A stretch of DNA of 64,000 bases from an uncultured virus (IMG/VR IMGVR_UViG_3300042521_003679) (taxonomy: Duplodnaviria > Heunggongvirae > Uroviricota > Caudoviricetes). Below the pieces are notes generated by a model. The model was not told the origin of the DNA. It ran no database searches and was given only the letters and a program-made list of their open reading frames with translations. How positions within the stretch are numbered: the first letter of the stretch is position 1; every line of letters begins with the position of its first letter. The stretch lies in IMG/VR virus record IMGVR_UViG_3300042521_003679; one strand, given 5' to 3'. Both the position numbers and the translations under genes were made by a program. Positions 6,826 through 43,885 of the stretch are shown here, in pieces.

Positions 6826-6910
6826 TGCACGCAAGCTTTTTGTCCATTCTAAACAATTCCCACGCCGTTGTTTTTCTGGGTAGGCTTAAGGCAAGACAAC
6901 TTATTTCGCC

Positions 6911-7748: not shown

Positions 7749-7750
7749 GA

Positions 7751-8968: not shown

Positions 8969-9035
8969 TGCCTTGACAAAACTCTTGCGACCATCATGCT
9001 GCTTTAGCCTAAAGACAACAAAGGAGGGCGAATGC

Positions 9036-25379: not shown

Positions 25380-25521
25380 CCGCATTGGCACCACCATCAC
25401 CACTGCCATTGTCGAACAAAATCATCACGACAAGCTTTTCATCGTGCTGCCGCAGTTTAATCAATGTCGATGGATAAAGAAAACAAACGATCCTGATTTT
25501 CGCATTATCGGAGAAGACTAA
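25333..25521 (+). CDS. Hypothetical protein
   Basis: MQDAINILAISNRGRSRIG...RWIKKTNDPDFRI. Confidence 0.6.
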   Translation: MQDAINILAISNRGRSRIGTTITTAIVEQNHHDKLFIVLPQFNQCRWIKKTNDPDFRIIGED

Positions 25522-25694
25522 TGATTCGTTCAGTGTTTTATTTTGCTTCTGAAGATGGCTACGAAGATTATGCCCTCACCATTGAAGAGCGTGATCAGCT
25601 AAAGACCATCTACGAAGCTGCTGGCACCTCGTTCATCATCAAGGAACTGCCAAGCGACGAAGAAGACGACGAGCCCCTTTACGAACCTTTCTAA
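25521..25694 (+). CDS. Small acidic protein (57 aa)
   Basis: TAATG coupling. Confidence 0.55.
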   Translation: MIRSVFYFASEDGYEDYALTIEERDQLKTIYEAAGTSFIIKELPSDEEDDEPLYEPF

Positions 25695-25697
25695 ACC

Positions 25698-26024
25698 ATG
25701 AAAACCACTATGCGCCCCAAGGCAAGAGCGACCGTCCGCACCTTTCAAGACAACAGCCCCTACTTTCCTGCAACGAAGGGCTGCTACCAAGCAACGAGCC
25801 TTAAAGAGCTTCTGTTCCACACCAGACTGGCTATGGAAGACCGGGAAGATACCATTGCCATCTTTGATGCAGAAGGCTCTTGCAAGGGCCTCTGGAAGCT
25901 TTCCACAGAAGGGCATGTGGACAGCGCTGGTGATAGCATTGTCGACCACGAAGGCTACGAGCTGATGCGCCCTGATACGAAGGAGCAATGGATGTGGAAC
26001 AAGCTTGTGGAGGAAGTTAAATAA
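25698..26024 (+). CDS. Hypothetical protein
   Basis: 108-aa ORF. Confidence 0.7.
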   Translation: MKTTMRPKARATVRTFQDNSPYFPATKGCYQATSLKELLFHTRLAMEDREDTIAIFDAEGSCKGLWKLSTEGHVDSAGDSIVDHEGYELMRPDTKEQWMWNKLVEEVK

Positions 26025-26437
26025 TGGGCACTAACTATTTCTTGCATGCTCCTGCTTGCGAGCATTGCGGCAAAGAGCCGGAAGAGCCCCTGCACCTTGG
26101 CAAAAGCTCGGCAGGATGGTGCTTTGGCTTGCACGTGTACCCCGAAAAAGATTTACACAATTGGGGCGATATATGGAGCCATATTCATTACAGGGTGGAA
26201 GAAAAAGATTATGAAATCAGAAACGAGTATGGAGATTCCATTGATCCTGCTCTTTTCTTTTCCATTGTTTGGGATAGAAAAGGACGGTCAGAAAAGCTTT
26301 TCGACAAGAAATGGTTAGCAGCCAATCACGCTACGATTGGCCCTTGTGGGCTTGCCAGGCATGCCTTGTATCCTGGCCATTGCATTGGCCATGGTGGCGA
26401 CGGCCCTTTTGACTACATTATTGGAGAATTCTCGTGA
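26024..26437 (+). CDS. Conserved phage hypothetical protein
   Basis: MGTNY...LHLGKSSAGW.F...IRNEYG...EFS. Confidence 0.75.
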   Translation: MGTNYFLHAPACEHCGKEPEEPLHLGKSSAGWCFGLHVYPEKDLHNWGDIWSHIHYRVEEKDYEIRNEYGDSIDPALFFSIVWDRKGRSEKLFDKKWLAANHATIGPCGLARHALYPGHCIGHGGDGPFDYIIGEFS

Positions 26438-26756
26438 TACTGGTTGATTATTTCTCTGAAGCCTGCTGCAAGGGCACTGAACTCGTGGAAGGCTGGTATT
26501 GGTATGAAGACGATGGGGAAGAAGTGGGAGGGCCGTATGAAGATCAAGAACAGGCGATTGAAGCGGCAAACAATGGGAAAGGCTGGTGAGAACTGGCCAG
26601 TGTTGTAATTACTAAAAAAAAATGGAACTCGCCAGCTCGGTATAGTAAATTGTGGGCAAATGTCCCGGCCAAGGTTGTATTTAGGGTCCGGCTGCGAGTG
26701 TAACTGAGGTCCGGCTAGTGCTGTGTAACGCGCGCGGGCCCGGCTGCGCGCCTATA

Positions 26757-26875
26757 CGCGCGCACGCGCACCCACGCGCGCACGCGCGCCCACGCGCGCA
26801 CGCGCACCCACGCGCGCACGCGCGCCCACGCGCGCACGCGCACCCACGCGCGCACGCGCGCGCACGCGCGCACGC
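26757..26875. repeat. 18-bp tandem repeat CGCGCGCACGCGC(A/G)CCCA, about 6.5 copies
   Basis: A and G variants alternate (36-bp super-unit); no T on top strand 26756-26875. Confidence 0.95.
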
Positions 26876-26888
26876 TGAGCTGTGACGG

Positions 26889-27023
26889 GCTTGTGGGCGT
26901 CGTTGGGCGTCGTTGGGCGTCGTTGGTGCTTGTGGGGGCTTGTGGGGGCTTGTGGGGGCTTGTGGGGGCTTGTGGGCGTCGTTGCGTGCCGTTTCTGCGC
27001 GTTGGGCGTCGTTGCGTGTCGTT
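26889..27023. repeat. 10-bp tandem repeats CGTTGGGCGT and TGTGGGGGCT x4
   Basis: Four G5 runs at 26931-26970; no A on top strand 26886-27023. Confidence 0.95.
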
Positions 27024-27310
27024 AATGCGCGGTGCGTGCGTTTCGTTTGGCATGGGTCAGTGTGACGGAATGTTGCAGGTATCGAGCGCTTCGCCTTTCT
27101 CCTGGTAAAGGCTCGCGCTCCTTTCGCTGACTGATCAGCCTGGCTTATGGCAATCGAGGCATTCCTGGGATGCATGGCCTTTCTCCTTATCTGATCAGCG
27201 TAGCTTCTCGAAAGGAGGCGAAAGGCGCTCCTCTTATGAGCGCTCCTGATCGCTCCTTCTCGAAAGGCGCTCGAGGCCTTTATATGGGGAGGTCTTCGCC
27301 TTTCTCTCTC

Positions 27311-27745
27311 ATGGCCTCTCCTCTCCTCCCGGGCGAGAAGCGCGCTCCTCGCGCGCCTCGCCTTTCGCCTTCGCCCGTTCTCCCGGGTGAGCTCTCATGG
27401 CCAGTGCTCTCCTTCTCCTCGCTTGAGGAGGCGGAGGCCTTCGCGCTCATGCTCGAGAAGAACCTCGCGCTCCTCGAGGAGCGCTCCTCGCCTTTCTCCT
27501 TGCGCGCCGATGCGGAGGAGCTCGAGCTCGAAGCCGCCTCCTTTCTCTCAGCTCTCGAGCGTGAGCCTCGCCTGTGCTTAAGCGCGAAGGATCTGCAGAT
27601 GGGAGCCTTGCAATTGCGCGAGCGCGCAGCAGAGCTCCGCACAATCGCCGACAGGCGAGAGGCTCTGCAGGCTCAGCTCGAGGAGAGCCTCGAGGAGCTC
27701 GAAGCGCTCATGGCTGATCTGCGCTGGCCTCTCCTCGCTCGCTGA
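27311..27745 (+). CDS. Coiled-coil hypothetical protein in AC/GT-depleted island
   Basis: ATG after CT-rich leader; L/E/A/R/S-rich. Confidence 0.7.
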   Translation: MASPLLPGEKRAPRAPRLSPSPVLPGELSWPVLSFSSLEEAEAFALMLEKNLALLEERSSPFSLRADAEELELEAASFLSALEREPRLCLSAKDLQMGALQLRERAAELRTIADRREALQAQLEESLEELEALMADLRWPLLAR

Positions 27746-27778
27746 GCTCCTTCTCCTTCTCCTTTCTCCTTCTCTCCC

Positions 27779-28894
27779 ATGGCTTCTCCTTCTCTCCTCC
27801 TCGCTCCTCCTGCGGTTCGCTCGAAGGCGCCTCGCTCTCCTCGCGAGCACTCCTCGAACCTCGCGCAGTTTGGCCTGACAATCCCCGGCCTTCTCACTTC
27901 AGGAGCTGCGAACGCGAAGCTCGCGAAAGGCGAAGGCCTCGCCTTCTCCTCGCTCCTTCATATGCTCCCCGCGAAAGGCCTCGCGCGCGCGCTCACTCCG
28001 GACTCGCATGCTTGCAACGTAAGGAGCGAGCTCCCCGGCCTTCGCGAGCTCGCGATTCGTTTCGGGCTCCTCGAGCGCGCGCTCGCGCTTAACGCTTGCG
28101 CCTTCTCGAGCGATGCTTGCAGGGATCTGTGTCTCGCCTTCTCAGGCCATGGCGGGATCTCGACCAACTGTGCCTCCTGCAGGGCTCGAAGAATGCTCGC
28201 CTTTCTATGGGACTCAGAGGCCTTTATAAAGGCGCTCCTGTGGTCCGGAGGCCTCGCAGCGCGAAAGGCGCGCAAGCTTCGCCTCCCCTTCGCCTTGCGC
28301 CTGAATGGCACACAAGAACTTCCATGGCATGAGCGGAGCATGAGCGCGCGCCTTTCTCCCGAGGAGGCTCGAGGCCTTTCTCGCCTTTATGGGAGCACAA
28401 TCCCTTCCGGTAGGCTCACAATCCCCGAGGCCTTGCGCGATGCTCGAGGCGTCCATCTTTATGACTACGCAAAGGCGCCTCTCGCGCGCCTCCTCGCCAT
28501 GAGAGAAGCCGGAATTCACACCACTGCGAGCCTTGCGGCTGACGCACCAGGGGGAGCACTTCGCGCGCTCGAGGCCTCGAGGCATGGCTTCTCGATTGCC
28601 GTACCAATATTGCTTGCAAAGGGCGAGCCTCTCCCTGGTGAGCTCATGCTCACGGCTCCCGGAGGAGGCCTTGCGCGCCTTGATTGCATCGATGGGGACC
28701 TTAACGACCTGCGCATGCTCGATCGAGCGCCTCGAGCTGGCTTCTCAGGCCTCGCGGTATTGCTTCGCCTTAAGCGCTCGAGAGGCTCGAAGCCTGAGAG
28801 CGCGAAGGCCTTCGCGCTCGCTCCGCATGCTGACTGGCAGGAGCTCGCAGGAGGAGGCCTCGCGCGCTTCTCGGGCTTGGGGGAATGCTCATGA
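27779..28894 (+). CDS. GP88-like protein (Cx6Cx3C, radical-SAM-like)
   Basis: NAKLAK, CAFSSDACRDLCL..SGHG, LRLNGTQE, YDYAK, IDGDLNDLRMLD. Confidence 0.75.
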   Translation: MASPSLLLAPPAVRSKAPRSPREHSSNLAQFGLTIPGLLTSGAANAKLAKGEGLAFSSLLHMLPAKGLARALTPDSHACNVRSELPGLRELAIRFGLLERALALNACAFSSDACRDLCLAFSGHGGISTNCASCRARRMLAFLWDSEAFIKALLWSGGLAARKARKLRLPFALRLNGTQELPWHERSMSARLSPEEARGLSRLYGSTIPSGRLTIPEALRDARGVHLYDYAKAPLARLLAMREAGIHTTASLAADAPGGALRALEASRHGFSIAVPILLAKGEPLPGELMLTAPGGGLARLDCIDGDLNDLRMLDRAPRAGFSGLAVLLRLKRSRGSKPESAKAFALAPHADWQELAGGGLARFSGLGECS

Positions 28895-29079
28895 GCTCCT
28901 CCTCCTTCTCCTCGCTCGAGCTCCTTCTCCTTCTCCTCGCTCTCGAAGCTTTCGAGCCTGAGAGCATGCTCGAGGAGGAGCTTCTCGAAGGCCTTCTCGA
29001 AAGGCTCGAGCGCTCCTCTCCTCGCCTCCCCTTCTCCTCCTCTCGAGAAGCTCGCGCGCGCCTCCTGCGAGGCTCCTGA
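28891..29079 (+). CDS. Small low-complexity protein in AC/GT-depleted island
   Basis: ATGA-coupled to GP88-like gene; followed by terminator. Confidence 0.5.
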   Translation: MSSSSFSSLELLLLLLALEAFEPESMLEEELLEGLLERLERSSPRLPFSSSREARARLLRGS

Positions 29080-29103
29080 GAGCTCTCAGGCTGGTCCTGT
29101 TCC

Positions 29104-29135
29104 GAGGCCTCTCCTTCATATGGGGAGGCCTTTCT
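29104..29135 (+). terminator. Terminator hairpin closing the island
   Basis: GAGGCCTCTCC-TTCATAT-GGGGAGGCCTT. Confidence 0.65.
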
Positions 29136-29644
29136 CATGCGAAGGAGGGAGAATCTTTAATTTTATCGGTTGATCAGCGTTCTTAATTATTGCAAACCAT
29201 AAAATGGTATCAACGGCTACAGAATTGGCGACGGATTGGTGGTAGATTGGCTGCAGCGCAGTAGCACGGCAAAAAGTTTTACGGGGGTGCGGGGTATCCC
29301 AAAATTGATGACGGGATATTTTCAAACGACTTTTTCTGCCCAATATTTACACCCACTCCAACAATTTACGCACGTGCTTATAAAGCTAGTGCGCACTGCG
29401 CGAACGATCTAGTCTGCAATGCATTGGAGTGAGCGCATTAAGATTGTTCGCACCAAGGAAAGGCTTACGAGAAGAAGCCGCCCAAAGCGGCGTAGATTAA
29501 TGCCTTTCCCATAGATTTTTCTTAGTAATGCCGTTATGGCATAAATTATTGCTTAATTTTCATTTTTCTATTGCTGCTGCGCACACTTTCAGCGGCTCGA
29601 GGCTATTTACGAGCATTTAAGCAGAAGAAGAAAGTCGTTTAGGA

Positions 29645-29821
29645 GATGGTTGTTAGAAGAGGCCCTTGGAACAATCGCCTTGGGGGCTTCTGCGCGTATC
29701 GGGCCTCTGCGAAGGGAGCTTATGAAAGCTTTTCGAGAGGGCCAGGAGGAAGGTCGCTTGAAACAATCGCCTTGAGGGCTTTCTTCGCGAGGCGACCTTC
29801 CTTGCAGCGTTAACAACCATC
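29645..29821 (-). ncRNA. Candidate structured RNA or ssDNA element
   Basis: Outer 11-bp inverted repeat enclosing two hairpins with near-identical loops; strand inferred from TATGAT upstream on minus strand. Confidence 0.45.
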
Positions 29822-29988
29822 GTTAACTATTTCAGGCGGCTGCTGCGCCTATGCCTATCATATATCGGCCTGTGGGTCTTCTGCGACGGTTTTACTAGGG
29901 TTTTGGGCAATGAAGCTTAAAAATTAAAGAATTTCTTAACAATTCAATTGGGAATAAAGCGGCTATGCTGAAGCCTGCCCGAGAAGCC

Positions 29989-30228
29989 ATGAGCTACCAC
30001 GACCCCTTTGAAACGGTTTCGGAAGTACGTTCCGTATGGCGCATCCACACGCCCAGCAGGCGCTATAAGAACAAAGTGCTAGCAATGTTTGAGAAGCTCA
30101 TGCAACTGCCCAAAGCCAGCTTTTACAAAACCAGCTTTCCAAGATACGATGGTTATCAATTTGACCTCCTTTCCTTTTCCATTGATCATGGAGAAGAAAG
30201 CTTGTCTTCTTTTTACCCTGATTGGTGA
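29989..30228 (+). CDS. Hypothetical protein
   Basis: ATG ORF. Confidence 0.55.
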   Translation: MSYHDPFETVSEVRSVWRIHTPSRRYKNKVLAMFEKLMQLPKASFYKTSFPRYDGYQFDLLSFSIDHGEESLSSFYPDW

Positions 30229-30632
30229 TGGCTTATTCTCTTGAGGAGCTTTGTCGCCTCGCCACTAAATACGCCCTGTGTCCTGAAATGTCTGAACCTT
30301 CCCTTTCTGAGCTAAAGAAGCGCTTTGCTGGTTTTGAATGGTGCGCCGATAAAGCCACTGCCGCTGCTTTTGGTTATTACGCCGCCATGGAAGAAGCCAA
30401 TGGTAAGAAGACTATTACAAAAGGCATTCATGAGCAATGCTCGTCAGTAGTGGAAGAGGCGATAGAAGGGAAAATTGATTCGCTAGAAGCTACGGACAGA
30501 ATTCTCACTCTTGTACATTGCTGGCTTTGCGAAGAAATGATGGAAGACGAAGAAGAACTAGAGCAGCTTGATCTCCTGTTTGACCCCTTTTTGATCAGCA
30601 GAGATTTTGTCGAGAAATATCAACAAGATTAG
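30228..30632 (+). CDS. Hypothetical acidic protein
   Basis: Coupled ORF. Confidence 0.7.
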   Translation: MAYSLEELCRLATKYALCPEMSEPSLSELKKRFAGFEWCADKATAAAFGYYAAMEEANGKKTITKGIHEQCSSVVEEAIEGKIDSLEATDRILTLVHCWLCEEMMEDEEELEQLDLLFDPFLISRDFVEKYQQD

Positions 30633-31597
30633 TCTCTATAAAACATTGAAGCAGCATGTAGCACGCTAAAGCCTTCTAGATTGAGCCTCTGAAGACGTTC
30701 GGGATAGAAGCAAGCAAGGCGATGATCTTCCATGTCTTTGTTGCGCAATGCCAAGCGCAAATCACGATCATCCATGTTGCAAGCGCTGAAGGGCTTTTTG
30801 AGAATGGTTTTTACAAAATTAAAGGTGCTCTCAAACAATTCTGGCGAATAGAGCTTTGTTGCTCGGCTATACACTGTCATATACCTTTCCATTGTCAAAC
30901 GATTGCCAATGGCATAAAGGTCACAAATGTCGTTGCCATGAGGCCCTTCATGTTGCCATAGCTCATCTTCGGGCTCTGGCCCCTCGCTTCTTTTGTCTCG
31001 CCAGCCCTGTTCCCACCATTTACGATGCTGCTCGCAGCAAGCTAAACAACCTCCTCCGCCTCCTGGATGCTTATGCACTGCTTCGTTAGAGGCAATGAGC
31101 AAACGAGCAAAGCGAGGGTCTTCGGAAAGAAAAAATTCTCTTTTGTCCCAGCGCTTAGGCTCTATATCAAAACGAAGCTTAACAATGGTGGAATGCTCTA
31201 TGTCATTTTCTTTTTCCCATTGAACCATTTGCTCATAGCTGCGCTGCATGGAATAGAGCTGCATGCCAATGTGCTTCTTTGCGGCTTGTTTGTCCAATAG
31301 AAAAGCTCGTTCAGGCAGCACTAATTGAGCCTCCGTTTTATCTTCATCCTCAAAGCAATAGTTCTTAAAAGGAAGCGCGTTAATCATTTCTTGCTTGCCT
31401 TCCAAAGGCACCTTCACATAGGAGCCTTCAATGCGCTGCTTTCCTCGTTGCTCCACTTGACAATCCACCGTCCAAGAATGGAAAAAGCAGTTGACAATGG
31501 CGCCATCAGCCTCGAGCGCATCAATTAGTTCTCGCCATCGTCCTGCATGCTTCATAAAGCTACGCTTATGGCCAGAAAACAACAGGGCAATGTACAT
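30629..31597 (-). CDS. Putative glycosyltransferase (GT-A-like)
   Basis: IALLFSGHKRSF, FFHSW, QLYSM, IVKLRFDI, CDLYAIG, PE motifs. Confidence 0.65.
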   Translation of the reverse strand: MYIALLFSGHKRSFMKHAGRWRELIDALEADGAIVNCFFHSWTVDCQVEQRGKQRIEGSYVKVPLEGKQEMINALPFKNYCFEDEDKTEAQLVLPERAFLLDKQAAKKHIGMQLYSMQRSYEQMVQWEKENDIEHSTIVKLRFDIEPKRWDKREFFLSEDPRFARLLIASNEAVHKHPGGGGGCLACCEQHRKWWEQGWRDKRSEGPEPEDELWQHEGPHGNDICDLYAIGNRLTMERYMTVYSRATKLYSPELFESTFNFVKTILKKPFSACNMDDRDLRLALRNKDMEDHRLACFYPERLQRLNLEGFSVLHAASMFYRD

Positions 31598-31688
31598 TGT
31601 GCGATTGTTAATTTTCTAGCTTTGTAGCCAATCCTACTCTCCCCCCATTGTTTCTTTTGATAGCGTGGAAGGATTAAGCTTTGGTGCC

Positions 31689-31877
31689 ATGCTAGATGAT
31701 CTGCCAATGCCTTTCATGGCTGGAGCGATTAAGCTTTGGCCCGTTCACAGTCGCCCTGGCTATCAATGGTTCATTGCTTACGGAGGTAAGCCGTATTATT
31801 TCCGTGCAAAAAGCGAAGCGTTGCTTTTTGCTAGGGATCAGCAAAGTGGAAGTGATCCTGAAGGGCTTTGCGACTGA
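31689..31877 (+). CDS. Hypothetical protein
   Basis: Short ORF before RNR. Confidence 0.6.
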   Translation: MLDDLPMPFMAGAIKLWPVHSRPGYQWFIAYGGKPYYFRAKSEALLFARDQQSGSDPEGLCD

Positions 31878-31929
31878 GCTACAGTAAGGAGTGTTCGTTC
31901 GGCCCGCGCAAAGCGGGCTTTGTTGTCTC

Positions 31930-33360
31930 ATGAAGCTCAAAGAAAGCGCAAAGTGCGAAAAGATTGCTCGAACTGGACGAGTGGAGAGCTGGTTAAATGA
32001 TCCTGAGGGGCGCTTGGCCGTGAGTTGCACGGTGTTCGTCGTGGAAGATTCAATGGAAGGGCCAGATGGCATTGAGCAATCGTGGCGCTTTGTTTCCCAT
32101 GGCCTTCGTAATGGCGCTGGCGTGGCAGTGCATCTTTCCAACTTGCGTCCCAAAGGCCAAGAAAATGGCAAAGGGCTTGTTGCGAGTGGTCCACTCAGCT
32201 TTGGCAAAATCTATTCCACGCTCAATGAAATTCTGCGTCGTGGTGGCAAGTACAAAAATGGCGCTGTTGTTTTACATCTTGACTACGACCATCCCGATGC
32301 CATTGATTTGATCACTGCTCCGCGATCAGAATTTCCATGGGCAAAGCGCTGCATTGATGTGGATGAGCAATTTCTTGATAAATCTTCGCCTGAATTTATC
32401 AAAGCATTATGCCAAGGCATTTCCAGCGGAGATATTTGGCTCAATAAGATTCGCTATAACGAAAGAGGAGAACGCTTGCGTGGAAATGTCTGCCTCGAGA
32501 TTTATCTTCCTCATCGTGGCACTTGCCTTTTACAGCATGTCAATCTCGGTGCTTGTGGCATCAATGATGTAGAGCAAGCTTTCAAGGATGGCATGAAGCA
32601 ACTGTGTGAGCTTCATCCTTCCACTGGCGTGGGCGACACTGGCGAATACCTTTCGCCTTCCATTGACAAGCAAGTGGGGCTTGGCATTCTTGGTTTAGCT
32701 AATTTCCTTTCCATTCATGACATCTCCTACGAAGATTTTGGCAAAGCTTTGGAAGCTTATCTTGATGAGGATCCTCATCCTTGGTGCCATCATTGGACTG
32801 ATCAGCGTGCTGGCGACGCCGTAGCCGCCATTCAATTGGGCTTGCTTGGTGCTGCGGACATTGCCAGGCAGCATGGCATGGAACGTGCCTTTACCATTGC
32901 CCCCACTGCTTCATGCTCTTATAGGTATTTGGACTCTAGAGGCTTTACGACTGCTCCTGAAATCGCTCCTCCCATTGACCAAATTATTGACCGTGATAGC
33001 GAGACGATGGGTGTGGAAAGATTTGAATATGGGCCAGTGGAAATTGCAGAGCAAGTGGGCTGGGAAGCATTTAAGAAAGTAGCCGATGGCATTGTTGAGC
33101 TGATGCGCCGCACTGGTCTTTTCCATGGCTATTCCATGAACTGGTGGTCTGATATGACCGTTTGTGATGAAGCTTTTCTTCGCGAATGGCTTGCCAGTCC
33201 TCAATCGTCTATTTACTATGCGCTGCAAGTGCAATCAGGCACACAAGCAAAGGACGATGTTGGAGTAGACTTGGGAGAGAGTCTGGCCGACTTCTTTAGC
33301 TTGGACGAGCCTGAGGCTTGTTCTTTGGAAGCTGGCTTCTGTAGCGCCTGCGCAGAGTGA
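31930..33360 (+). CDS. Minimal ribonucleotide reductase catalytic subunit (cyanophage SP / class O-slash type)
   Basis: IARTGRV, VSCTVF, NVCLEI finger loop, TCLL, IAPTASCS, YY, C-terminal CSAC; about 476 aa. Confidence 0.9.
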   Translation: MKLKESAKCEKIARTGRVESWLNDPEGRLAVSCTVFVVEDSMEGPDGIEQSWRFVSHGLRNGAGVAVHLSNLRPKGQENGKGLVASGPLSFGKIYSTLNEILRRGGKYKNGAVVLHLDYDHPDAIDLITAPRSEFPWAKRCIDVDEQFLDKSSPEFIKALCQGISSGDIWLNKIRYNERGERLRGNVCLEIYLPHRGTCLLQHVNLGACGINDVEQAFKDGMKQLCELHPSTGVGDTGEYLSPSIDKQVGLGILGLANFLSIHDISYEDFGKALEAYLDEDPHPWCHHWTDQRAGDAVAAIQLGLLGAADIARQHGMERAFTIAPTASCSYRYLDSRGFTTAPEIAPPIDQIIDRDSETMGVERFEYGPVEIAEQVGWEAFKKVADGIVELMRRTGLFHGYSMNWWSDMTVCDEAFLREWLASPQSSIYYALQVQSGTQAKDDVGVDLGESLADFFSLDEPEACSLEAGFCSACAE

Positions 33361-33437
33361 GCCACGTTTAAGACAATGGGGCAGCAGTAGCTGCCCTTGT
33401 TTGTCGTCCTTTGTTTTTTACCATTGCTTCTTTTCAC

Positions 33438-34163
33438 ATGGCAGTTCTTGATTATTTTTCTGCAGTTGCCCGCAAGCGTCCTTGGCAAGCAGTGCCTGTT
33501 ACTAAAGGTGATTTTGTGGAAGGCTCCGAGGAAACGATTTTCCGCGCCCTTGCCATTCGTCACCTTGAACTGCCTGTGAAGGACATGCTTCTCGAGGGCC
33601 TAGAGCGGGAACTTCCTAACAGTCCTGGGCTTATTGAATCCATTCATAGCAATATGGCCGACGAAGAGCGTCATGACGAAGCTCTCAATTACGTTGCTGC
33701 TGCTCATGGCACAAATGAGCAATCGGAAAAAGAAGCTTTTCGGATTCGCCAAGCATGGATCGACCATCCAGCCCATCCAATTCTCAAGGTGGCAACAATT
33801 GAACGCAGTTTGTTTTTTACAATTTTGCCGTTCTTTCGTTTCAATGGCGACAAAGGGTTGAGGACTGTTGCTAGTGACATTTCTCGCGATGAAATATGCC
33901 ACTCGTTTTGCAATACCAAGATTGCGGAGGAGTCTGGGGAGGAATACAGCAGCAGTCTGAACAAGCTCAGAAAAATGACGGCGCTGTGGATTTACGATAA
34001 GCTTGATTCTTCGTCCAATAAATACTTGGACAAAGATTTTTGGCTTCGCCAAAGTGATAGCCTTTTTCTCAGCGGTAAAGCCCCAGAATTGCAAGAAACT
34101 CGTGCCAGTACAGTGCCAGCGTTTTTTGAAACGAATGCGCTGAATTTACCGTCCTATGGTTGA
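33438..34163 (+). CDS. Ferritin-like RNR small subunit
   Basis: ELPV, DEERH, E, DEICH carboxylate/His motifs; adjacent to catalytic subunit. Confidence 0.85.
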   Translation: MAVLDYFSAVARKRPWQAVPVTKGDFVEGSEETIFRALAIRHLELPVKDMLLEGLERELPNSPGLIESIHSNMADEERHDEALNYVAAAHGTNEQSEKEAFRIRQAWIDHPAHPILKVATIERSLFFTILPFFRFNGDKGLRTVASDISRDEICHSFCNTKIAEESGEEYSSSLNKLRKMTALWIYDKLDSSSNKYLDKDFWLRQSDSLFLSGKAPELQETRASTVPAFFETNALNLPSYG

Positions 34164-34405
34164 GTGGGCTTTTCCGACTTATCTGCTCTACAGTAGTCTG
34201 TGACAGAGGCCAAGCCCCTGTTTGAGCCGCTTGCGGCTGTTCACGCTTGGCCCATCTCTTGCTACGATTGTCAAGCAGCGCACGGACTGGAAATTTCTGG
34301 TCGTTGCGTTTGTAAACTAAGTCCTGCTTGCAGGCCGGGAGAGTTGATCGCCTCCTGCAGTCCTCCCCCTAAGCCTCTTAACAATGCTTAAATTTGGGGG
34401 TCACT

Positions 34406-34473
34406 GGCCCTGAAGTGTTGGCACACGTCATGCAGATAGCATGGAATACTGGGTTCGATTCCCGGCAGCGCCC
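34406..34473 (+). tRNA. Atypical tRNA-like element (GAT at anticodon position)
   Basis: Acceptor GGCCCTG/CAGCGCC (one mismatch), 4-nt D-loop, CAGATAG loop, T-arm CTGGG-TTCGATT-CCCGG. Confidence 0.5.
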
Positions 34474-34488
34474 TTTTCGTTAATCCCT

Positions 34489-35049
34489 ATGAGCGCCTTC
34501 GTTATTGGAGATAGCCACTGGGGACACGCCAAAAGCTTGTCTTTTGTCCAGCCCGATGGCTCCCCATTGCGTCCTTTTTCTTCGTGCGAAGAGATGGATG
34601 AGACAATGGTGGAGCGGTGGAATGCAGTGGTCAAGGACAAGGACACTGTTTACCATCTTGGCGACGTAGCAATTCCGCGTAGTGGGCTAAAAAACTTAGC
34701 CAGATGCAATGGGAGAAAGATTCTTATTCGCGGCAATCACGACACGTTCAAGCTCAAAGACTACGCCGAGTATTTTGAAGACATTCGCGGGGCCATGTTT
34801 CACCATGCAGGCAAGGCATTGCCAGGTGGTCTTATTTTCACGCACATTCCAGTGCATCCCGACAATCTTCGTGGGCACTATCTAGGTAATGTTCACGGAC
34901 ACCTTCACTGCCATCTAGTGATAAAAGATGGGCAAGTTGATCAACGATTTTTCAATGCCTGCGTTGAGAGGAACGATTTCACTCCTGTAGCATTGGATTT
35001 GATCGTCGATCACTTCCGCACCAATGTCCGAGGAGCGGCGAACTTTTAA
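34489..35049 (+). CDS. Calcineurin-like metallophosphoesterase
   Basis: DSHWGH, HLGDV, GNHD, THIP, HGHLH. Confidence 0.9.
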   Translation: MSAFVIGDSHWGHAKSLSFVQPDGSPLRPFSSCEEMDETMVERWNAVVKDKDTVYHLGDVAIPRSGLKNLARCNGRKILIRGNHDTFKLKDYAEYFEDIRGAMFHHAGKALPGGLIFTHIPVHPDNLRGHYLGNVHGHLHCHLVIKDGQVDQRFFNACVERNDFTPVALDLIVDHFRTNVRGAANF

Positions 35050-35224
35050 CACGCCGTTGCGTGAGCCTCTCAATCCCATCATCCATCGTCTTCTTCAAGC
35101 CATTGATTGGCACAATTCCCGCTATTTCGAGGATCATGATCCTTGGCACTTGGAAAAAGCGGAAAGCTTGCGAAGCTATGTGAGAGAACTAAAAAACTGG
35201 GTGAAGAAAAAAGAAGAAGGGTGA
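35024..35224 (+). CDS. Hypothetical protein
   Basis: FNTPLREP.NPII...ID.H...WH pattern. Confidence 0.7.
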   Translation: MSEERRTFNTPLREPLNPIIHRLLQAIDWHNSRYFEDHDPWHLEKAESLRSYVRELKNWVKKKEEG

Positions 35225-35415
35225 GGCAGAGTTTTCCCGCATTAGGGAATCAATGGGTGCGGCCCATGCTCTGCCTTGTTGTGAGTGCTTCAACTCACTC
35301 ACGGAATCCCCAAAGCCAACAGTGACGAGGATGTTGGAGCGGGGAGAGCCTGAGCCCTCCCTTGGTATGAATACCACTAGGCGCCTAGTGGGCTCCTGCA
35401 GGAAGCTTGCAAAGC
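35224..35415. ncRNA. Candidate structured RNA (chain of hairpins)
   Basis: Several consecutive stems, including a three-way junction at 35224-35276. Confidence 0.35.
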
Positions 35416-35546
35416 TTAGCAGACTTCCGTCCAATACACGGCGGCTCCTTCTAGGAACAATCGCCTATTTACATGCCGAGCTTCGTGGAATGGCACTTCC
35501 CATGTTTCCCGCTTTCCATGGCGAGAAAAGAACAAACGTACCACGA

Positions 35547-35723
35547 TCAATCAGCAGTTGCAGCGGTGAGTTCCCTGTATTCCTCTTCCCATTGCCTCAT
35601 TGCTGCCCTTGCAAGCCTCGCTTCTTCGCTATTGGGGCCATATAGCCTGCCGCTCTCTTCAACGGCTCTAGAGGCTTCCATGGCGAACTCCCAGGCTTCT
35701 TCCGCAGCGCGTAACAGGGCCAT
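35547..35723 (-). CDS. Small hypothetical protein (58 aa)
   Basis: MALLRAAEEAWEFA...TAATAD*. Confidence 0.55.
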   Translation of the reverse strand: MALLRAAEEAWEFAMEASRAVEESGRLYGPNSEEARLARAAMRQWEEEYRELTAATAD

Positions 35724-35749
35724 GGAGAAGAAGGAGGGTTGTCATTAGT

Positions 35750-35926
35750 TTAGCCTTGCAAGTTTTTCATTGCTTTCACCACTTTCTCGGCTTCCCTAAG
35801 TTTGGGCAAAAGCGTAGGCTTATAGGCGTGTTCTGCCGCAAGAAGCTGCAAAGCCGTTTGCCTGTCGGCTTCAAGCAGGGCAAGGATAAAAGCCAGTTCC
35901 TTGCTGGAAAGTTCAACGCCAATCAT
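35750..35926 (-). CDS. Small hypothetical protein (58 aa)
   Basis: MIGVELSSKELAFILALLE...*. Confidence 0.55.
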   Translation of the reverse strand: MIGVELSSKELAFILALLEADRQTALQLLAAEHAYKPTLLPKLREAEKVVKAMKNLQG

Positions 35927-35975
35927 TTTTCAACAACAGTGAAAACAGTGTGATTGGTGAAAATTCTAAAGGCAA

Positions 35976-37355
35976 TTAACGGACTAAGCTATTGATCCAA
36001 TCGATATTATCGTCCTTGGAAGCATCAAGCACTGCTGCCGCAAGCGCAAAGCAATAATCGTCAACGCCTGATTCTTTACCACCAGTTACGGCCCATTGAC
36101 CACTTGCTCGATACAGCACGCTGAGGTTTTTAAGCTGCCAAATAAGTTTCTTATGCGGGTAGAGTTCAATCAATCCCGCGTTAAACAATTCTCGAACCTT
36201 GCTGAATGCCTTCATTTTTGTCGAGACCGACCAAGCGAGCTCTGAAATTGGAAAGTCTTTTGATAGGTCTTGAATGATGGCGGAGCTATTAAATTGGTCA
36301 AGCGTAATGCTCTGAAATTCGTAAAGGCGATGGTGCTCCTTAATCCATTCCTCCACCTTCGCGATGCTTACTTCCTTCTTTCCGCCAATTTCAAAATCAG
36401 CTTCGAACGTATGTAGCTTGTCCAGGATTAATCGCTGCCCTTCGTAGTGGATGATGCAGGCAATGTATTCATCTCTGCCCACGCCACCACGCGCAGGGTC
36501 TAGAGAAAGAAAGTAGGTGCCCATAAGCTCTCTTTTGGGAGGCAAGACAGATCGATCTTTGTTGACGGCAATATCCACCACTTCAGGGGCAAGCAGCACT
36601 GAGTTGTTGGCTCTAAATTGAGCGCCAAATTCTACATAAAAAGTCTCTTCATCTTTCTTTCTTGCTCTAGTAAGAAAGTCGCAATCAAAGGGAAGCGACG
36701 GGTTAATTTCCCAAGTAGGAATTTGCAGGGCTTGCATACCTGGAAACTCACCACTTTGCGCTTGCTTGAAATGGTCAAAAAAGACACCTGACGTAAGATA
36801 AGGTGAAGAAAGCTCGATAATTTTTCCGTGTTTGCCAAACTGAGCAATGGAAGGCGCGAGTGCCGTGTACATTGCTTCTGCACCTCTATTTGCGTCTCCT
36901 TCTATAGAAAATGCCAGCTCATCTTGGATCAAGGCTACAACTGCTTTGCCACGAGATGCGCGAGCCGATGCAGGAATAGCCTGGAAAACACAACCATTTT
37001 TGATCTCAATTTCCAAGCTTGTTTCCCTTATTATTTCTTGCTCAAATGGGCTATTAAGAATTAGTTGGCGTATATTGTCAAGGGCAATTTTAGACTGGCC
37101 GAGGTCATTAGCTACGGCAATAACATACCATTTTTCACCCTTTCTTACCTTGCGCGTAAAATACTCATCTTGGGCGAAACACATGTACAGTGCTGCAACT
37201 GCCGCACAAAAAGTTTTCCCACTACGCCTGCCGAGCGCCCAGATAGCATGATTGATATTTTTTTCAAATAGATTATTGAGGATTTCTTGTTGCTTGGGCC
37301 ATAGCTCCACGCCAAGTGCGTGCTCTGCGAATTCCGAACAGCGAAGTTGAGTCAT
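35976..37355 (-). CDS. terL: Terminase large subunit
   Basis: GRRSGKT Walker A, LIQDE Walker B, LSSP, SLDPA and DDY nuclease motifs. Confidence 0.92.
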   Translation of the reverse strand: MTQLRCSEFAEHALGVELWPKQQEILNNLFEKNINHAIWALGRRSGKTFCAAVAALYMCFAQDEYFTRKVRKGEKWYVIAVANDLGQSKIALDNIRQLILNSPFEQEIIRETSLEIEIKNGCVFQAIPASARASRGKAVVALIQDELAFSIEGDANRGAEAMYTALAPSIAQFGKHGKIIELSSPYLTSGVFFDHFKQAQSGEFPGMQALQIPTWEINPSLPFDCDFLTRARKKDEETFYVEFGAQFRANNSVLLAPEVVDIAVNKDRSVLPPKRELMGTYFLSLDPARGGVGRDEYIACIIHYEGQRLILDKLHTFEADFEIGGKKEVSIAKVEEWIKEHHRLYEFQSITLDQFNSSAIIQDLSKDFPISELAWSVSTKMKAFSKVRELFNAGLIELYPHKKLIWQLKNLSVLYRASGQWAVTGGKESGVDDYCFALAAAVLDASKDDNIDWINSLVR

Positions 37356-38098
37356 TGCAACTGCTGGACAATTCGCCCCGTCCAACCTTTATGTTGTTTA
37401 GCACTTCCATTCACTACCCTGTCCAAGCATGAATTTGTTAGCTTGTATTGCTTAGAAAAATCAAATAAGTTTTCCGTCATGTACACTTCACCGTTTGGGT
37501 CGATAAGTTCGTAAAGATATTTTTGGCTTTTTAATTTGCTCATGGCCCTGCCCTTAGATGTGGCGCGATAGGCGCGTTGTTTCTCGGAGATTTTAGACCT
37601 CGCCTCGGGAGAATGATTTTTGCCCCACATGGGATTCCTTTCTCCTCGTATTAAGTCGCCGCCAGCGGTGGGATTAAGATGCCCTTTCCAGCGGCCCTCT
37701 TTTTGGCGTTGTTTGCGAATTTTCTCCTTGGTCTCCATACTCACAATTTTTCCCTTGTTCGCCTTGGAAATTTTGAGGCGAGCCTCTTCTGAGTGAATCA
37801 TTCCAGATGCGCCCTCGCCCCCATTGCTTTGATTGCGAAGAATTCCTGTGCCTAAATCAATACGCCCATAATGCGCAATGTAGATACATTCCCAGTCAAA
37901 AGCCTCTTGCTCTGTTAACTGAGTGCGTAAAAATACAATTTTGCTTCTATCAACTGGAAGCTGTATTCTTCTGTTTTTAGACCACGCTCTTTTCCCGCTT
38001 CCCTTGCCGATGTAATATGGGCTTCCTTTCTTGCCGTGCTGAGAGTCCACGCTTCTGAGAAAAGCGTAGATATAAAATCGCCGCTCATTCTTGCTCAT
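37352..38098 (-). CDS. Free-standing GIY-YIG homing endonuclease with NUMOD3-like repeats
   Basis: FYIYAF...PYYIGKG; N..NGGEG; HSEEARLKIS, HSPEARSKIS. Confidence 0.85.
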   Translation of the reverse strand: MSKNERRFYIYAFLRSVDSQHGKKGSPYYIGKGSGKRAWSKNRRIQLPVDRSKIVFLRTQLTEQEAFDWECIYIAHYGRIDLGTGILRNQSNGGEGASGMIHSEEARLKISKANKGKIVSMETKEKIRKQRQKEGRWKGHLNPTAGGDLIRGERNPMWGKNHSPEARSKISEKQRAYRATSKGRAMSKLKSQKYLYELIDPNGEVYMTENLFDFSKQYKLTNSCLDRVVNGSAKQHKGWTGRIVQQLQ

Positions 38099-38579
38099 TC
38101 AAGCTCTCCATTGTCCTTAGTGCTGATTGTGGCACGAAAAACGCTGGGCGTCCACGGGCGGGATCCGCCCAGTATTGCCCTTGCATTGCTTCATGGCCAT
38201 AGCACCAGCCATGAATGAATGTTTTTTGACATTCTATGGTCACTAGAACAAATTTTTTACTGGAATCTTCATTTTTTTGCACAATTAAATCGTAAGCATG
38301 TTTTGAACGCGTTTTCACATCCATGCCGGGCAGATCATCTGAGCCCCGCTTGGCTTCGCTTTCTTTGTAAAGCAAATGCTTGAGCCCCAAGTAGGAACCC
38401 ACGGCCATTTCGCCCGCTGCGCCAAGCAAGTGGATTTCCAAGGCTTTGTCGCCACGAGCGGCGCCACGATTACGACCACGAAGCCCTTTTGCTTCATTCA
38501 CGGACTGCCTCCGCTTTCCTTCCTCCATTGCCTGCTTTCGTTCCTCTTCGGAAAAGACAAATTCAATGGGAGTGGGCAT
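38085..38579 (-). CDS. Hypothetical nuclease-like protein
   Basis: GAAGEMAV...D...MDVKT pattern. Confidence 0.65.
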   Translation of the reverse strand: MPTPIEFVFSEEERKQAMEEGKRRQSVNEAKGLRGRNRGAARGDKALEIHLLGAAGEMAVGSYLGLKHLLYKESEAKRGSDDLPGMDVKTRSKHAYDLIVQKNEDSSKKFVLVTIECQKTFIHGWCYGHEAMQGQYWADPARGRPAFFVPQSALRTMESLNEQE

Positions 38580-38644
38580 AGCAAGACGCACGTCATGGCC
38601 ATCATACACATCTTTAGAATGGAAGCAAGCCCATAATGTGAACA

Positions 38645-40720
38645 ATGTCGGAAGAAGCAGTAGATCTTGGCCATGCGAACGAAGCTGGTCTGCGAGCGGA
38701 CGGCCTTGCCAATGCGCTCACGGGCATGGGCATTAAAGGCCGTGACAAAAGCCTGCAAACCACTGCCCAGCCCATCGTCTTCTTGGCTCAAGAAGAGCTG
38801 GAAGCTCTGTACGGCGAATGGCTTCCACGCCGCATTGTAGACATTTATGCCGAGCAGGCCACCCGCAAAGGCTTCAAAGTGCTGTTTGGTGGCGAGGGTG
38901 CCGCTGCCGAGGAGGTGGTGGGCATTGAACAAACTATTGAGGATCTGCACATCCTCGAGAATTTCATGCTGGCTTCCAAGAATGCTCGGCTCTATGGGGG
39001 GTCCGTCATCCTGCTCTACATCGACGATGGGCGTCCAGCGGATCAGCCAGTAGACAAGAGCCGCATTTATACCGTTGAAGGCATGGAAGTGCTTGACCGC
39101 TGGCAAATTGCACCAGTGATTAACGAAGAAAATCTATACGACTACTCCAAGGCAACATATTATCAAATCATTTCAGGCGACCTCATTCGCCAGCCACAAC
39201 TCACCTACATCCATAAAGATAGGATTTTGCGTTTTGACGGTGACTGGCTTCCCTATCGCATTAGGCAAAGGAACTATGGATGGGGAATGAGCAGTTTGCA
39301 AACTGTCTACGAAAGCTTTAAGCACTACTGGACTGGCCTAAATGCCTCGGCCACGCTGTTGTGTGAGTTTGACATTTTCGTTCACAAGATTAAGGGCTTG
39401 GCTCAAATGCTGGCTGCTGGGAAAGAAAAAGACGTGCGTGATCGTCTCGTACTAAATGATATGAGCAAGAGCGTTTATCGCGGCTACGCCATTGACGCAG
39501 AAAAAGAAGAGCTTGCTTTTATCAGCAGAAACTTTGGAGGCGTGGGAGAAATTCTCGAGAAGATGCGTGTGGACATCATTGGAGCCTCCAAGATTCCTCA
39601 TACAGTGCTGTTTGGCGAAAGCCCCAGCGGCCTTGGTTCCACCGGCAGAAGCGAAGAGCGTGATTTCGCCAAGACGCTTGCAGACTACCAGCAATCCACT
39701 TTCCATCGCCCTCTCAAGAAGCTGATGGAGCTAATCATGCTCAGCCGCACTGGTCCCACAAATGGGCGCATGCCTGAGTCATGGCGCATTCATTTCAACG
39801 ACTTGTTCGAGCTGAACGAGCGCGAGAAGGCCGACGTAAGAGCCCGCGTGGCAGCCGTTGACGGGCGTTACATCCAACTGGGAGTACTGAGTCCCAAGGA
39901 AGTGGCTGACGCTCGTTACGGCGGCTCTGAGTGGTCAATGGAACTCACTCTCGATCCGTCCGTGGTGCGGGAACTTCCTGCCCCTGGAGGGGGTGGTTCC
40001 ACTCAAGAAAGGGGTGGCATGAAAGTGCCTCCTGGTGGTCGCGATCCCCTTGACGAGCAAAACGGCACTCTTCCCATGGACGGAAGTCGAGAAGTGGAAG
40101 ATGCTGCCGGCTTGTACTTGCCTCGGGATCTCGAGCATCGACGCGGAGATGTTACTTTTACCGACAAAGAGCTGCATAGTCAAGCTGTGGCAGCGGCCAA
40201 AAGCAAATTCAAAGTGTGGCCATCAGCTTATGCCAGTGGCTATGTGGTGCAGCAGTACAAGCGCATGTACAAAGAAAAGCACGGTTCAATGAGCGGCGCT
40301 TTCAAGGGTGATGGTCAAGAAATTTATGCCGATGATCTTGATAAGTGGTTTAAGGAAAAATGGGTGAGAATTGGGGCCAATGGCGAAATCATGGGACCAT
40401 GCGGTGCTCGTGAAGAGAAAGAAGGAAAGCCTAAGTGCCTCCCTCAAGCGAAGGCTCAAGCCATGAGCAAAGAAGAGCGCCAAACCATTGTTGCTCGCAA
40501 GCGCAAAGCTGATCCCGATCCAGAACGCAAAGGGCCGGCGAAGATGGTCAGTAGCAAAGTCGATGCCATTGAGCCCATGAAAGTAGAAGGCATGATCCTT
40601 GGCAACATTGACGAGGAAGCTTTTATTACGGAGGCTGACATTGACAAGGCTTTGAGTGAATGGAAGGAGGAAGCTCCTGTCAAGTTCAAGGAAATCCTGG
40701 AAGCCGACAATGCTGAATGA
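38645..40720 (+). CDS. Portal protein (DUF1073-type) with C-terminal DUF5872-like accessory domain
   Basis: RRIVD, ARLYGG, WGMS, IPHTVLFGESPSGL; WPSAYASG...LDKWFKEKW...PKCLP. Confidence 0.88.
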   Translation: MSEEAVDLGHANEAGLRADGLANALTGMGIKGRDKSLQTTAQPIVFLAQEELEALYGEWLPRRIVDIYAEQATRKGFKVLFGGEGAAAEEVVGIEQTIEDLHILENFMLASKNARLYGGSVILLYIDDGRPADQPVDKSRIYTVEGMEVLDRWQIAPVINEENLYDYSKATYYQIISGDLIRQPQLTYIHKDRILRFDGDWLPYRIRQRNYGWGMSSLQTVYESFKHYWTGLNASATLLCEFDIFVHKIKGLAQMLAAGKEKDVRDRLVLNDMSKSVYRGYAIDAEKEELAFISRNFGGVGEILEKMRVDIIGASKIPHTVLFGESPSGLGSTGRSEERDFAKTLADYQQSTFHRPLKKLMELIMLSRTGPTNGRMPESWRIHFNDLFELNEREKADVRARVAAVDGRYIQLGVLSPKEVADARYGGSEWSMELTLDPSVVRELPAPGGGGSTQERGGMKVPPGGRDPLDEQNGTLPMDGSREVEDAAGLYLPRDLEHRRGDVTFTDKELHSQAVAAAKSKFKVWPSAYASGYVVQQYKRMYKEKHGSMSGAFKGDGQEIYADDLDKWFKEKWVRIGANGEIMGPCGAREEKEGKPKCLPQAKAQAMSKEERQTIVARKRKADPDPERKGPAKMVSSKVDAIEPMKVEGMILGNIDEEAFITEADIDKALSEWKEEAPVKFKEILEADNAE

Positions 40721-41387: not shown

Positions 41388-41407
41388 TAGGGCAAAGTTT
41401 CAAGCCC

Positions 41408-43822: not shown

Positions 43823-43885
43823 GCCACAGTCCGCTTCTGCCATAGTCTAAAACCCTTGTAAGATGAGGCCAGCTTTCCTTTTCTT

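Follow-up and report, generated by a model that had tools for sequence, protein, structure and literature searches.

We have analyzed a 64,000-nucleotide stretch of DNA from the uncultured virus IMGVR_UViG_3300042521_003679, referred to below as the window, and in particular an island at 27080-29141 (+ strand) that is poor in the dinucleotides AC, GT and TA. The window represents most of a siphovirus genome, with genes for the large terminase, portal, protease, major capsid and tape-measure proteins. The island is one allele of a self-contained early cassette, which comprises a leader, small open reading frames (ORFs), an enzyme of the GP88 family and a terminator of its own. The slot for this cassette, in a group of ~70-kb lake siphoviruses, lies between a small early gene (~25740-26437 in the window) and the ribonucleotide reductase (RNR) genes. 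The purge of AC and GT is strong, amounting to 3- to 11-fold at synonymous sites.

On the left side, homology with close relatives ends near 26540-26590 and returns only at a 26-bp element, GGGTCAGTGTGACGGAATGTTGCAGG (27054-27079, + strand), which contains an inner inverted repeat and forms the left junction of the cassette; sequence identity with the relatives then breaks exactly at 27079|27080. The element occurs with 0 mismatches in L004 and with 2 in L007, L008 and L009 (ordinary-cassette carriers). It probably has a regulatory role, as a candidate promoter or operator. No sigma-70-like promoter was found on the + strand of 26400-29700. The preliminary description of this DNA had reported here a 17-bp operator shared with native early genes, but that sequence proved to be single-copy in the window at up to 3 mismatches, and none of the 13-mers of 27020-27100 is repeated as a coherent element in other parts of the window.

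Three ORFs on the + strand lie within the island. The first (27170-27745, 191 aa, from the ORF list) is of low complexity and rich in Leu, Ala, Glu and Arg; it is an uncertain gene call, whose true start may be further in. It has no family match in Pfam, PHROG, NCBIfam or PADLOC, and only its last 54 residues (138-191) match L002 and L010; at the DNA level 27263-27806 is 77% identical to L017 and L018. The second ORF encodes the GP88-family protein (27779-28894, 371 aa; PF17338, phrog_1617). The third (28885-29079, 64 aa, from the ORF list) overlaps the GP88 stop codon, is free of AC and GT over most of its length and carries a 25-nt repeat in two copies together with CTC-type repeats. Of the three genes originally proposed for the island, this small ORF is supported by similar ORFs after GP88 in L016 and L018, and the first ORF is conserved only in part. 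The cassette ends in a terminator-like hairpin with a short T-rich tail (29110-29141, + strand; hairpin 29110-29128), recognized by a terminator scan and by alignment of the right junction in 7 loci. The cassettes of relatives likewise close at this place with a hairpin and a T-run, for which the island has a counterpart devoid of AC and GT. Homology with relatives returns at 29142-29180. The ~800 nt 3' of the cassette (29160-29960) hold no convincing ORF and are ~97% conserved in close relatives; no Rfam family was matched there or elsewhere in 26000-30600.

Upstream of the 26-bp element, Tandem Repeats Finder identified non-coding tandem repeats at 26756-27031, made up of an 18-nt ACGCGC-type unit repeated 6.7 times and three G-rich 10-nt units repeated 3-5 times. 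These repeats are AC/GT-rich and lie within the region that differs between relatives. The 18-mer is an alternating purine-pyrimidine sequence, Z-DNA-like by eye, and the G-rich 10-mers hold runs of four to five G. At the matching place in L018 (6700-6800) there are different, TA-rich repeats, followed by an 11-nt CT-rich repeat that opens the L018 island.

AC and GT together occur 59 times in 27080-29160, or 1.7 per 60 nt, versus 5.33 in the whole window and 6.49 in the capsid gene (50125-51030). The preliminary description had counted 58 such steps in 27121-29160 and about 6 per 60 nt in a line of the capsid gene; our recount of that interval also gave 58. The depletion survives correction for base composition, the corrected ratio (rho) being 0.33 for AC, 0.18 for GT and 0.37 for TA in the island versus 0.75, 0.68 and 0.56, respectively, in the window. 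The reported lack of any AC or GT in 28835-29093 was confirmed; the gap that contains it (28833-29094, 261 nt) is the longest AC/GT-free gap of the window, the runner-up outside the island being 100 nt. In 500-nt windows moved in steps of 50 nt, the island holds 8-24 AC+GT and the minimum outside it is 24. TA and AT had both been called scarce: this holds for TA, as the rho value indicates, but not for AT (67 seen, 70 expected by composition). GC content is 62% in the island versus 51% in the window. The most extreme parts of the island are those outside GP88, with 0.87 AC+GT per 60 nt versus 2.42 in GP88. Those AC and GT steps that remain stand in alternating contexts, e.g. TACG and ACAC. Junctions between purine runs and pyrimidine runs are nearly always G|C, and GAGT, AGTC, GGTC and ACTC occur at 0.1-0.2 of their first-order expectation.

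The same slot carries other alleles in related phages. L004-L009 and L013 have flanks 92-97% identical to those of the window, yet hold unrelated DNA of similar length at ~26.5-29.15 kb, which also encodes a GP88 homologue. The ordinary form in close relatives has a 303-aa, 28% identical GP88, 46-50% GC and an adjoining HNH endonuclease gene; the L006 form has a 617-aa, 47% identical GP88 and 70% GC. At L009:12339-13079 (- strand) and at L006:13109-13909 (- strand) the cassette is separated from the conserved small early gene by an HNH endonuclease gene (PF13392), and where relatives with the ordinary or high-GC allele carry this gene the window has its tandem repeats. No empty slot was found among relatives with enough flank; all of these hold some GP88 cassette.

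A protein search gave 86 homologues of GP88. Val and Thr together make up 2.7-5.7% of residues in all 41 homologues at 58-91% identity and 6.2-12.9% in the other 45. We fetched 29 viral loci with an alignment of the 58-91% identity group, and every one of them (29/29) has an island of this kind, with a length of 1.1-3.3 kb, GC of 0.58-0.66, rho AC of 0.21-0.51 and rho GT of 0.16-0.37. The remainder of these loci has GC ~0.50, rho AC 0.50-0.88 and rho GT 0.47-0.75. The rule used for island boundaries is conservative; the L018 island, for example, truly spans 6901-9300. Pooled statistics are from 24 of the 29 loci, five with identical figures having been dropped, and gene-level statistics are from 23, one more (partial) having been dropped. 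The pooled islands (44 kb) contain A, C, G and T at 0.106, 0.403, 0.233 and 0.258, with rho values of 0.26 for GT, 0.34 for AC and 0.40 for TA, and CTC accounts for 11.5% of their trinucleotides. A more divergent member of the purged lineage (L087:2092-4712) has stretches with 3-4% A, up to 77% pyrimidine on the sense strand and 0-2 AC+GT per 200 nt.

Two further lineages keep a make-up of their own. The second, sampled in 27 of 49 fetched loci (one per apparently distinct sequence), has 65-71% GC in 25 of the 27 and a CTG-type composition (TG 1.64, TC 0.63, CG 0.61), with AC and GT at backbone level. In one branch of this lineage, in a phage of 62% GC (L081:5000-7351), GP88 lies in a CpG-poor island of at least 2.2 kb, which starts after an AT-rich spacer; rho CG is 0.10-0.53 per 200 nt in the L081 island versus 0.7-1.0 upstream, and 0.28 over the GP88 gene of L080. 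The third, ordinary lineage (15 of 20 loci examined) has GC 0.46-0.49, rho AC 0.74-0.95 and rho GT 0.59-0.84; this slot holds it even where the backbone shares only ~70% identity with the window, and its GP88 proteins remain unpurged although their identity falls to 58%. A quick tree of 61 genes places each lineage on one side of a branch (Shimodaira-Hasegawa-like approximate likelihood ratio test values of 93 for the 24 purged genes, and 91 and 100), although amino-acid make-up differs between the groups and may bias the tree. There are at least three old GP88 cassette lineages, which swap in the slot by recombination at fixed junctions.

The purge operates at the nucleotide level, as the preliminary description had proposed, and this is seen in codon phases, codon junctions and replaced residues. 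AC/GT steps in the window's GP88 number 15, 21 and 9 at codon phases 1-2, 2-3 and 3-1, versus expectations of 38.6, 40.6 and 19.6 derived from 14 backbone genes. In the 23 purged genes, with 5413 four-fold codons, third-position A has a frequency of 0.011 before C versus 0.126 otherwise, and third-position G a frequency of 0.041 before T versus 0.128 otherwise; synonymous avoidance of AC and GT is therefore present. The same junction test in the high-GC lineage gave 0.040 versus 0.137 for A|C and 0.163 versus 0.235 for G|T. NGT codons have been almost abandoned in the purged genes (GGT 0.05, CGT 0.10, AGT 0.01). Resampling with the protein and the codon usage of the clade held fixed yields 48-60 AC+GT per gene; the real genes have 24-50 and lie below the resampled mean in 23 of 23 cases. 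The protein has also been affected: the 5 Val residues reported for the window's GP88 were confirmed (Thr = 10), and at 8 of 14 columns that are Val or Thr in other lineages the residue has been replaced, in agreement with the claimed loss at conserved sites. The NGT motif retains its invariant Thr, and a few other such residues have also been kept. The three motifs cited in the preliminary description as the original ones (VRLNGTSD, FYDYTK and VIDGD) do occur in the ordinary-composition homologue of a close relative (L009:10532-11443), except that VVDGD is found there and not VIDGD. Synonymous divergence (dS) between the window's GP88 and its relatives is 0.72 and 0.87 for the two nearest and 1.2-2.0 for the other 20, so silent sites have turned over while the purge stayed. 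Sub-lineages differ in their favoured codons and palindrome load, yet all avoid AC and GT.

The purged make-up travels with the cassette between unrelated backbones. Distances between GP88 genes and between the flanking RNR genes are uncorrelated over 91 pairs from 14 loci (r 0.13, Spearman -0.10, p 0.36), by which co-divergence of island and backbone is rejected; L024 and L030, for example, are 36% apart in RNR and 12% apart in GP88. The island of the window is also rich in six-base palindromes, as had been remarked, with CTCGAG occurring 19 times, GAGCTC 13, AGGCCT 16, GCGCGC 18 and TCGCGA 4 times. In the backbone (outside 26600-29200) the numbers seen and expected are 0/15.7 for CAGCTG, 0/10.7 for GCGCGC, 0/7.5 for GTGCAC, 0/5.5 for CCGCGG, 2/18 for GAGCTC, 2/16 for AGGCCT, 1/11.7 for TTTAAA and 2/10.6 for GGGCCC. 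There is thus no generic avoidance of type II sites in the island, as previously stated, since GAGCTC, AGGCCT and GCGCGC, which the backbone avoids, are abundant there; it follows that the island has not been hardened against type II enzymes. Related phages, in 230 kb of pooled flanks, likewise lack CAGCTG and CCGCGG (0 versus 54.8 and 0 versus 22.6 expected); GAGCTC and AGGCCT are not avoided there. The island looks like a recent arrival in the window's particular backbone. Six-mer palindromes number 69 in the window's GP88 versus 25 expected, and 19-38 versus ~22 in most others; selection for palindromes was rejected as the primary cause of the composition, the excess being strong only in the window's sub-lineage (L015, L016, L018).

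A chimera or other assembly artefact is ruled out by an independent IMG/VR contig with 100% identity over 17 kb and by junction-spanning contigs; contigs from lake runs not flagged as a possible source of the record cross both junctions. Record 8 of run X10 covers 26947-30400 with 0 differences, and 58-99% of the words sampled are present in 24 lake-water runs (2018-2024). The depth of the island in run X18 is 6.5, versus ~30 for the backbone, and contigs with loose ends at 27079 and 29174 continue from there into the ordinary allele; the two alleles thus coexist in one lake sample. One contig of X18 skips 427 nt at 26016-26444, with 14 other letters instead, and lacks most of the 137-aa gene at 26024-26437. 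No DNA matches of the island or of 29200-45000 were found in the phage collection, and searches of NCBIfam and PADLOC gave no hit.

To judge from its sequence, the GP88-family protein is real and constrained. It matches PF17338 with 28.3 bits (gathering cut-off 24.4) and phrog_1617 with an E value of 5e-20, and PF17338 is matched by 24 of 24 members of the homologue alignment (best E 1.4e-23). Over 24 diverse homologues 33 columns are invariant, among them C107, C114 and C118 (spaced C-x6-C-x3-C), many Lys and Arg, acidic residues and a D-G-D...D motif, and the ratio of nonsynonymous to synonymous substitution (dN/dS) is 0.20-0.30. GP88 has a confident structural model (predicted local distance difference test score 87) and is treated here as a probable enzyme with a putative barrel fold. 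A Foldseek search with this model gave nothing at E<=1e-3. A full fold scan placed radical S-adenosylmethionine (SAM) enzymes at ranks 1-14 with weak Z scores of 5.2-6.4, and in this tool a Z score below 8 may reflect merely a common arrangement. The CxxxCxxC cluster motif that radical SAM enzymes carry after the first strand is absent from GP88, which has C-x6-C-x3-C instead, and no match to the Radical_SAM Pfam family was obtained at E values up to 1. A language-model lead points to DUF7227 and DUF5131 (Atlas score of 0.75 for DUF5131), the latter of which is listed by RadicalSAM.org as a radical SAM subgroup (PMC9477430). The family comprises 3676 representative clusters at E<=0.001, and PF17338 was matched in 39 of 39 sampled remote profile hits. 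In one remote homologue, P0138 (708 aa), the GP88 domain is fused to a RadC-like JAB domain.

Elsewhere, the window encodes RNR, ThyX, an exonuclease, an annealing protein, a dCTP deaminase-like protein and a sugar-transferase cluster. No genes for DNA hypermodification were found in the window. The sugar cluster (41333-46531, between the portal and protease genes) includes a xylose-isomerase-like TIM barrel protein, three glycosyltransferase-type proteins and a DUF4422 protein, together with an FAD oxidoreductase on the opposite strand, and may serve virion glycosylation. A single tRNA-Ile (anticodon GAT) lies at 34406-34473, between the RNR genes and a phosphoesterase gene.

The cause of the purge must lie in the cassette lineage itself. 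A positional cause is excluded by the unpurged alleles found in the same slot behind the same element, and a general mutation bias of phage or host is excluded by the backbones of the same genomes, which keep a rho of ~0.65. We tentatively favour the view that selection on the cassette's nucleotide sequence maintains the purge and would thereby keep the cassette blind to a nucleic-acid activity with a very short motif. Such an activity, recognising nucleic acid by a very short word with AC/GT as its core, would have to miss the cassette. This activity would be tied to the purged allele, either as a host defence that is neutralised by its GP88 or as the target specificity of GP88 itself. The module could be transcribed without damage at a time when its product is needed by the remainder of the genome, and the three alleles could be kept in the population by hosts with differing defences. 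Selection is favoured because the avoidance is context-specific at silent sites, reaches non-coding elements and costs conserved residues, and because it is the one feature common to sub-lineages that differ in codons and palindrome load. Duplex DNA is put slightly ahead of mRNA as the substrate, since AC and its complement GT are both purged.

Several points weigh against selection of this kind. No activity with a two-base recognition core was identified in this analysis, and the purge of whole dinucleotides far exceeds what the removal of any known restriction or bacteriophage exclusion (BREX) sites would need. The sense strand is strongly pyrimidine-rich (C+T 57-70%, A 9-15%), an excess that a pure reader of duplex DNA leaves unexplained and that points to RNA or to other forces. 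The backbone itself under-represents AC, GT and TA (~0.7, 0.65 and 0.6), and the island may be exaggerating this general bias. The parts of the island outside GP88 show an excess of repeated words beyond composition, as slippage would give. GP88 has no sequence match in PDB, weak fold matches and no assigned function, and the lead to a host is weak as well, the relatives of the large terminase (87% and 70% identity) being in contigs of metagenome-assembled genomes labelled Methylacidiphilales and Bacteroidetes.

If RNA is what is read, the mRNA may have been purged to survive a short-motif endoribonuclease, belonging to a host abortive-infection or toxin system or brought in by the phage, until it is translated. 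AC, GU, UA, UU and CA would have been removed, leaving C/U-rich single strands with the purines locked in GAG:CUC-type helices. We regard this as unlikely, although much of the composition is consistent with it: the island coincides with a single transcription unit that starts directly behind the 26-bp element and ends at the terminator; its sense strand is asymmetric (A 9-15%, C 35-44%), with pyrimidine third positions; UA, UU and UG are depleted and UC is enriched; and the leader and first ORF fold somewhat better than shuffled sequences (z -3.8). MazF-type toxins cut ACA/UAC-type words, and ACA-free mRNAs escape them. However, AC and GU are similarly purged, which calls for two RNase specificities or a coincidence, the words cut by other known toxins (GCU, CUCCU-type words) are very abundant in the island, no RNase has been identified, and none of the sequencing runs listed as containing the sequence was an RNA run.

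A mutational origin without function would have slippage, short-patch conversion and hairpin-templated repair homogenising a low-complexity, dyad-rich vocabulary, with the poverty in AC and GT as a frozen accident of the founding words (CTC/GAG, GCN, CGC). A third-order Markov model is exceeded in the whole island by repeated 10-mers (213 versus 116±22) and 12-mers (60 versus 22±9), in the left non-GP88 part by repeated words (51 versus 26±10), and also by palindromic six-mers (124 versus 96±10). Tandem repeats occur inside the island, low-complexity DNA makes its length vary between 1.1 and 3.3 kb, genes for an exonuclease and an annealing protein are present in the phage, and a single origin is enough, the purged genes forming one branch. 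Within GP88, however, the excess of repeated words is not significant at the third order (37 versus 28±10), and indels are few, yet junction avoidance is 3- to 11-fold. The dN/dS of 0.2-0.3 is that of ordinary constrained point substitution, and the avoidance of AC and GT by all sub-lineages, whatever their codons and palindromes, also speaks against a process of this kind, which we regard as a serious rival, though an unlikely one.

Several other causes were considered, and most were rejected. Overlapping or multi-frame coding was discarded, as the alternative open frames of GP88 are no longer than in resampled genes (+1 frame, P 0.32-0.997 in 23 of 23 genes; +2 frame, P<0.05 in only 2 of 23). 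Translational optimisation does not fit a capsid gene that is not AC/GT-poor and an effect that reaches non-coding parts. Slot-specific, transcription-linked mutation is contradicted by unpurged alleles behind the same 26-bp element. Template-strand TT is ~4-fold rarer in islands than in flanks, but UV-hardening of the template of a repair gene leaves AC/GT unexplained, and the ordinary allele lacks the feature.

The selective reading can be taken a step further, in a form that we think quite unlikely as stated: GP88 cassettes would be counter-defence modules, each encoding an enzyme that acts on DNA at a lineage-specific short word absent from its own transcription unit. The words would be AC/GT in the purged lineage, and TC/GA and CG in the high-GC lineage. 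If true, it would bring to light defences, or DNA-marking enzymes of phages, by which self and non-self are distinguished at dinucleotide resolution, and a balanced polymorphism of three alleles that tracks defences in lake populations.

It is very unlikely that the island is an ordinary moron, that is, foreign DNA which keeps the make-up of its donor and is passed around under no present constraint on AC and GT. The cassette does have a composition unlike its neighbours and its own terminator, as described for morons (PMC4378225), it moves between backbones, and in the window's backbone it looks recently imported, holding sites that this backbone avoids. All 29 loci, however, belong to a single phage group and share one slot; the 86 database homologues (long contigs 50-75 kb) revealed no further context, and empty slots are lacking among the relatives. 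At dS 1.2-2.0 the composition is still the same, while in the same genomes ordinary and high-GC alleles each retain a different composition of their own. The lack of another context and the absence of decay at saturating divergence make a mere donor signature unlikely.

The preliminary description had proposed that the island is first-entering DNA, purged of asymmetric type I, IIG, III or BREX targets until its products protect the rest, as in the first-step-transfer (FST) region of T5. Of this proposal the real, nucleotide-level purge stands and the positional mechanism does not, given unpurged alleles in the same slot. The purge does reach amino acids and span a whole early transcription unit, and a repeat-rich non-coding stretch adjoins the island, as at the T5/BF23 FST border according to one account (PMC10644984). 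As a whole the proposal is nevertheless most improbable: unpurged GP88 cassettes occupy the slot in close and distant relatives, the neighbouring early genes (25500-26590) are unpurged, the island abounds in type II sites avoided by the backbone, no operator links it to other early genes of the window, and the long contigs of relatives start at scattered, unrelated places, with no fixed end apparent near the island. Type I, III and BREX sites, moreover, have 4-7 specified bases, and clearing ~2 kb of them needs few changes and not the loss of a dinucleotide. As the ordinary lineage has diversified unpurged in the slot, position or first entry cannot be the cause, and the idea of a module left untouched until its product acts survives only in an allele-linked form.

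Compared with known systems, the central protein of the island belongs with the GP88 phage proteins of Pfam, mycobacteriophage members of which are ~29% identical; the family description gives neither a function nor any hint of a compositional island, and 'PF17338' is mentioned in no paper within our open-paper literature search. The cassette resembles morons, as they are described in PMC4378225, in being a short unit between conserved genes with its own terminator and an odd composition. It differs from morons in that one of three homologous cassettes is always present in the slot, and in that its odd composition has stayed stable across saturating divergence. With the FST region of T5-like phages the cassette would share the logic of an early module that protects the rest and is under pressure to lack defence sites; in these phages restriction, CRISPR and Ssp systems are reported to work only on sites within the region whose products protect the remainder (PMC10644984). 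That region is a property of the genome end, with terminal repeats, two-step injection and sites of 4-8 bases. The island differs in that it is bound to an allele and not to a place, concerns a dinucleotide pair, extends to the amino-acid level and is known from contigs only; the dependence on position seen in T5-like phages was not found here, the ordinary and high-GC cassettes in the same slot being unpurged.

Depletion of a two-base protospacer adjacent motif (PAM), CC of type I-F, has been reported genome-wide in targeted Pseudomonas phages (PMC12174588; PMC4246573). In PAM or restriction-motif depletion a short word is likewise under-represented on both strands (compare rho GT 0.26 and AC 0.34 in the 44 kb of pooled islands), but in phages such depletion is modest and genome-wide, whereas the island's is specific to one allele, restricted to 1-3 kb and amounts to 3- to 5-fold. 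The PAM of type I-D CRISPR is GTN; the contrast of GTH with GTG in the pooled islands is inconsistent between the two strands. In animal and plant RNA viruses CpG and UpA are suppressed, the dinucleotide being removed because a host factor reads it (PMC7029135). That case differs from the island in kingdom, in affecting whole genomes and in concerning RNA. We know of no bacterial counterpart, and within a bounded search of open papers no phage was reported to have a dinucleotide-level purge tied to one allele.

In phages, the avoidance of motifs is familiar as a mild signature that restriction or CRISPR pressure leaves across the genome, and compositional islands are usually read as recent imports. 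The present case differs from both, as a strong constraint is confined to a single allele of a single cassette and has been held beyond one full turnover of silent sites while the cassette hopped between backbones. A constraint so strong, allele-confined and persistent means that something specific must read or produce the two-base step in this module. If the agent is a defence or a phage enzyme, it would represent a new kind of very-short-motif recognition in bacteria, and the uncharacterised GP88 family would gain a testable role. If it is a mutational process, the island would be an unusually clean natural case of local, sequence-driven compositional runaway within a conserved enzyme gene.

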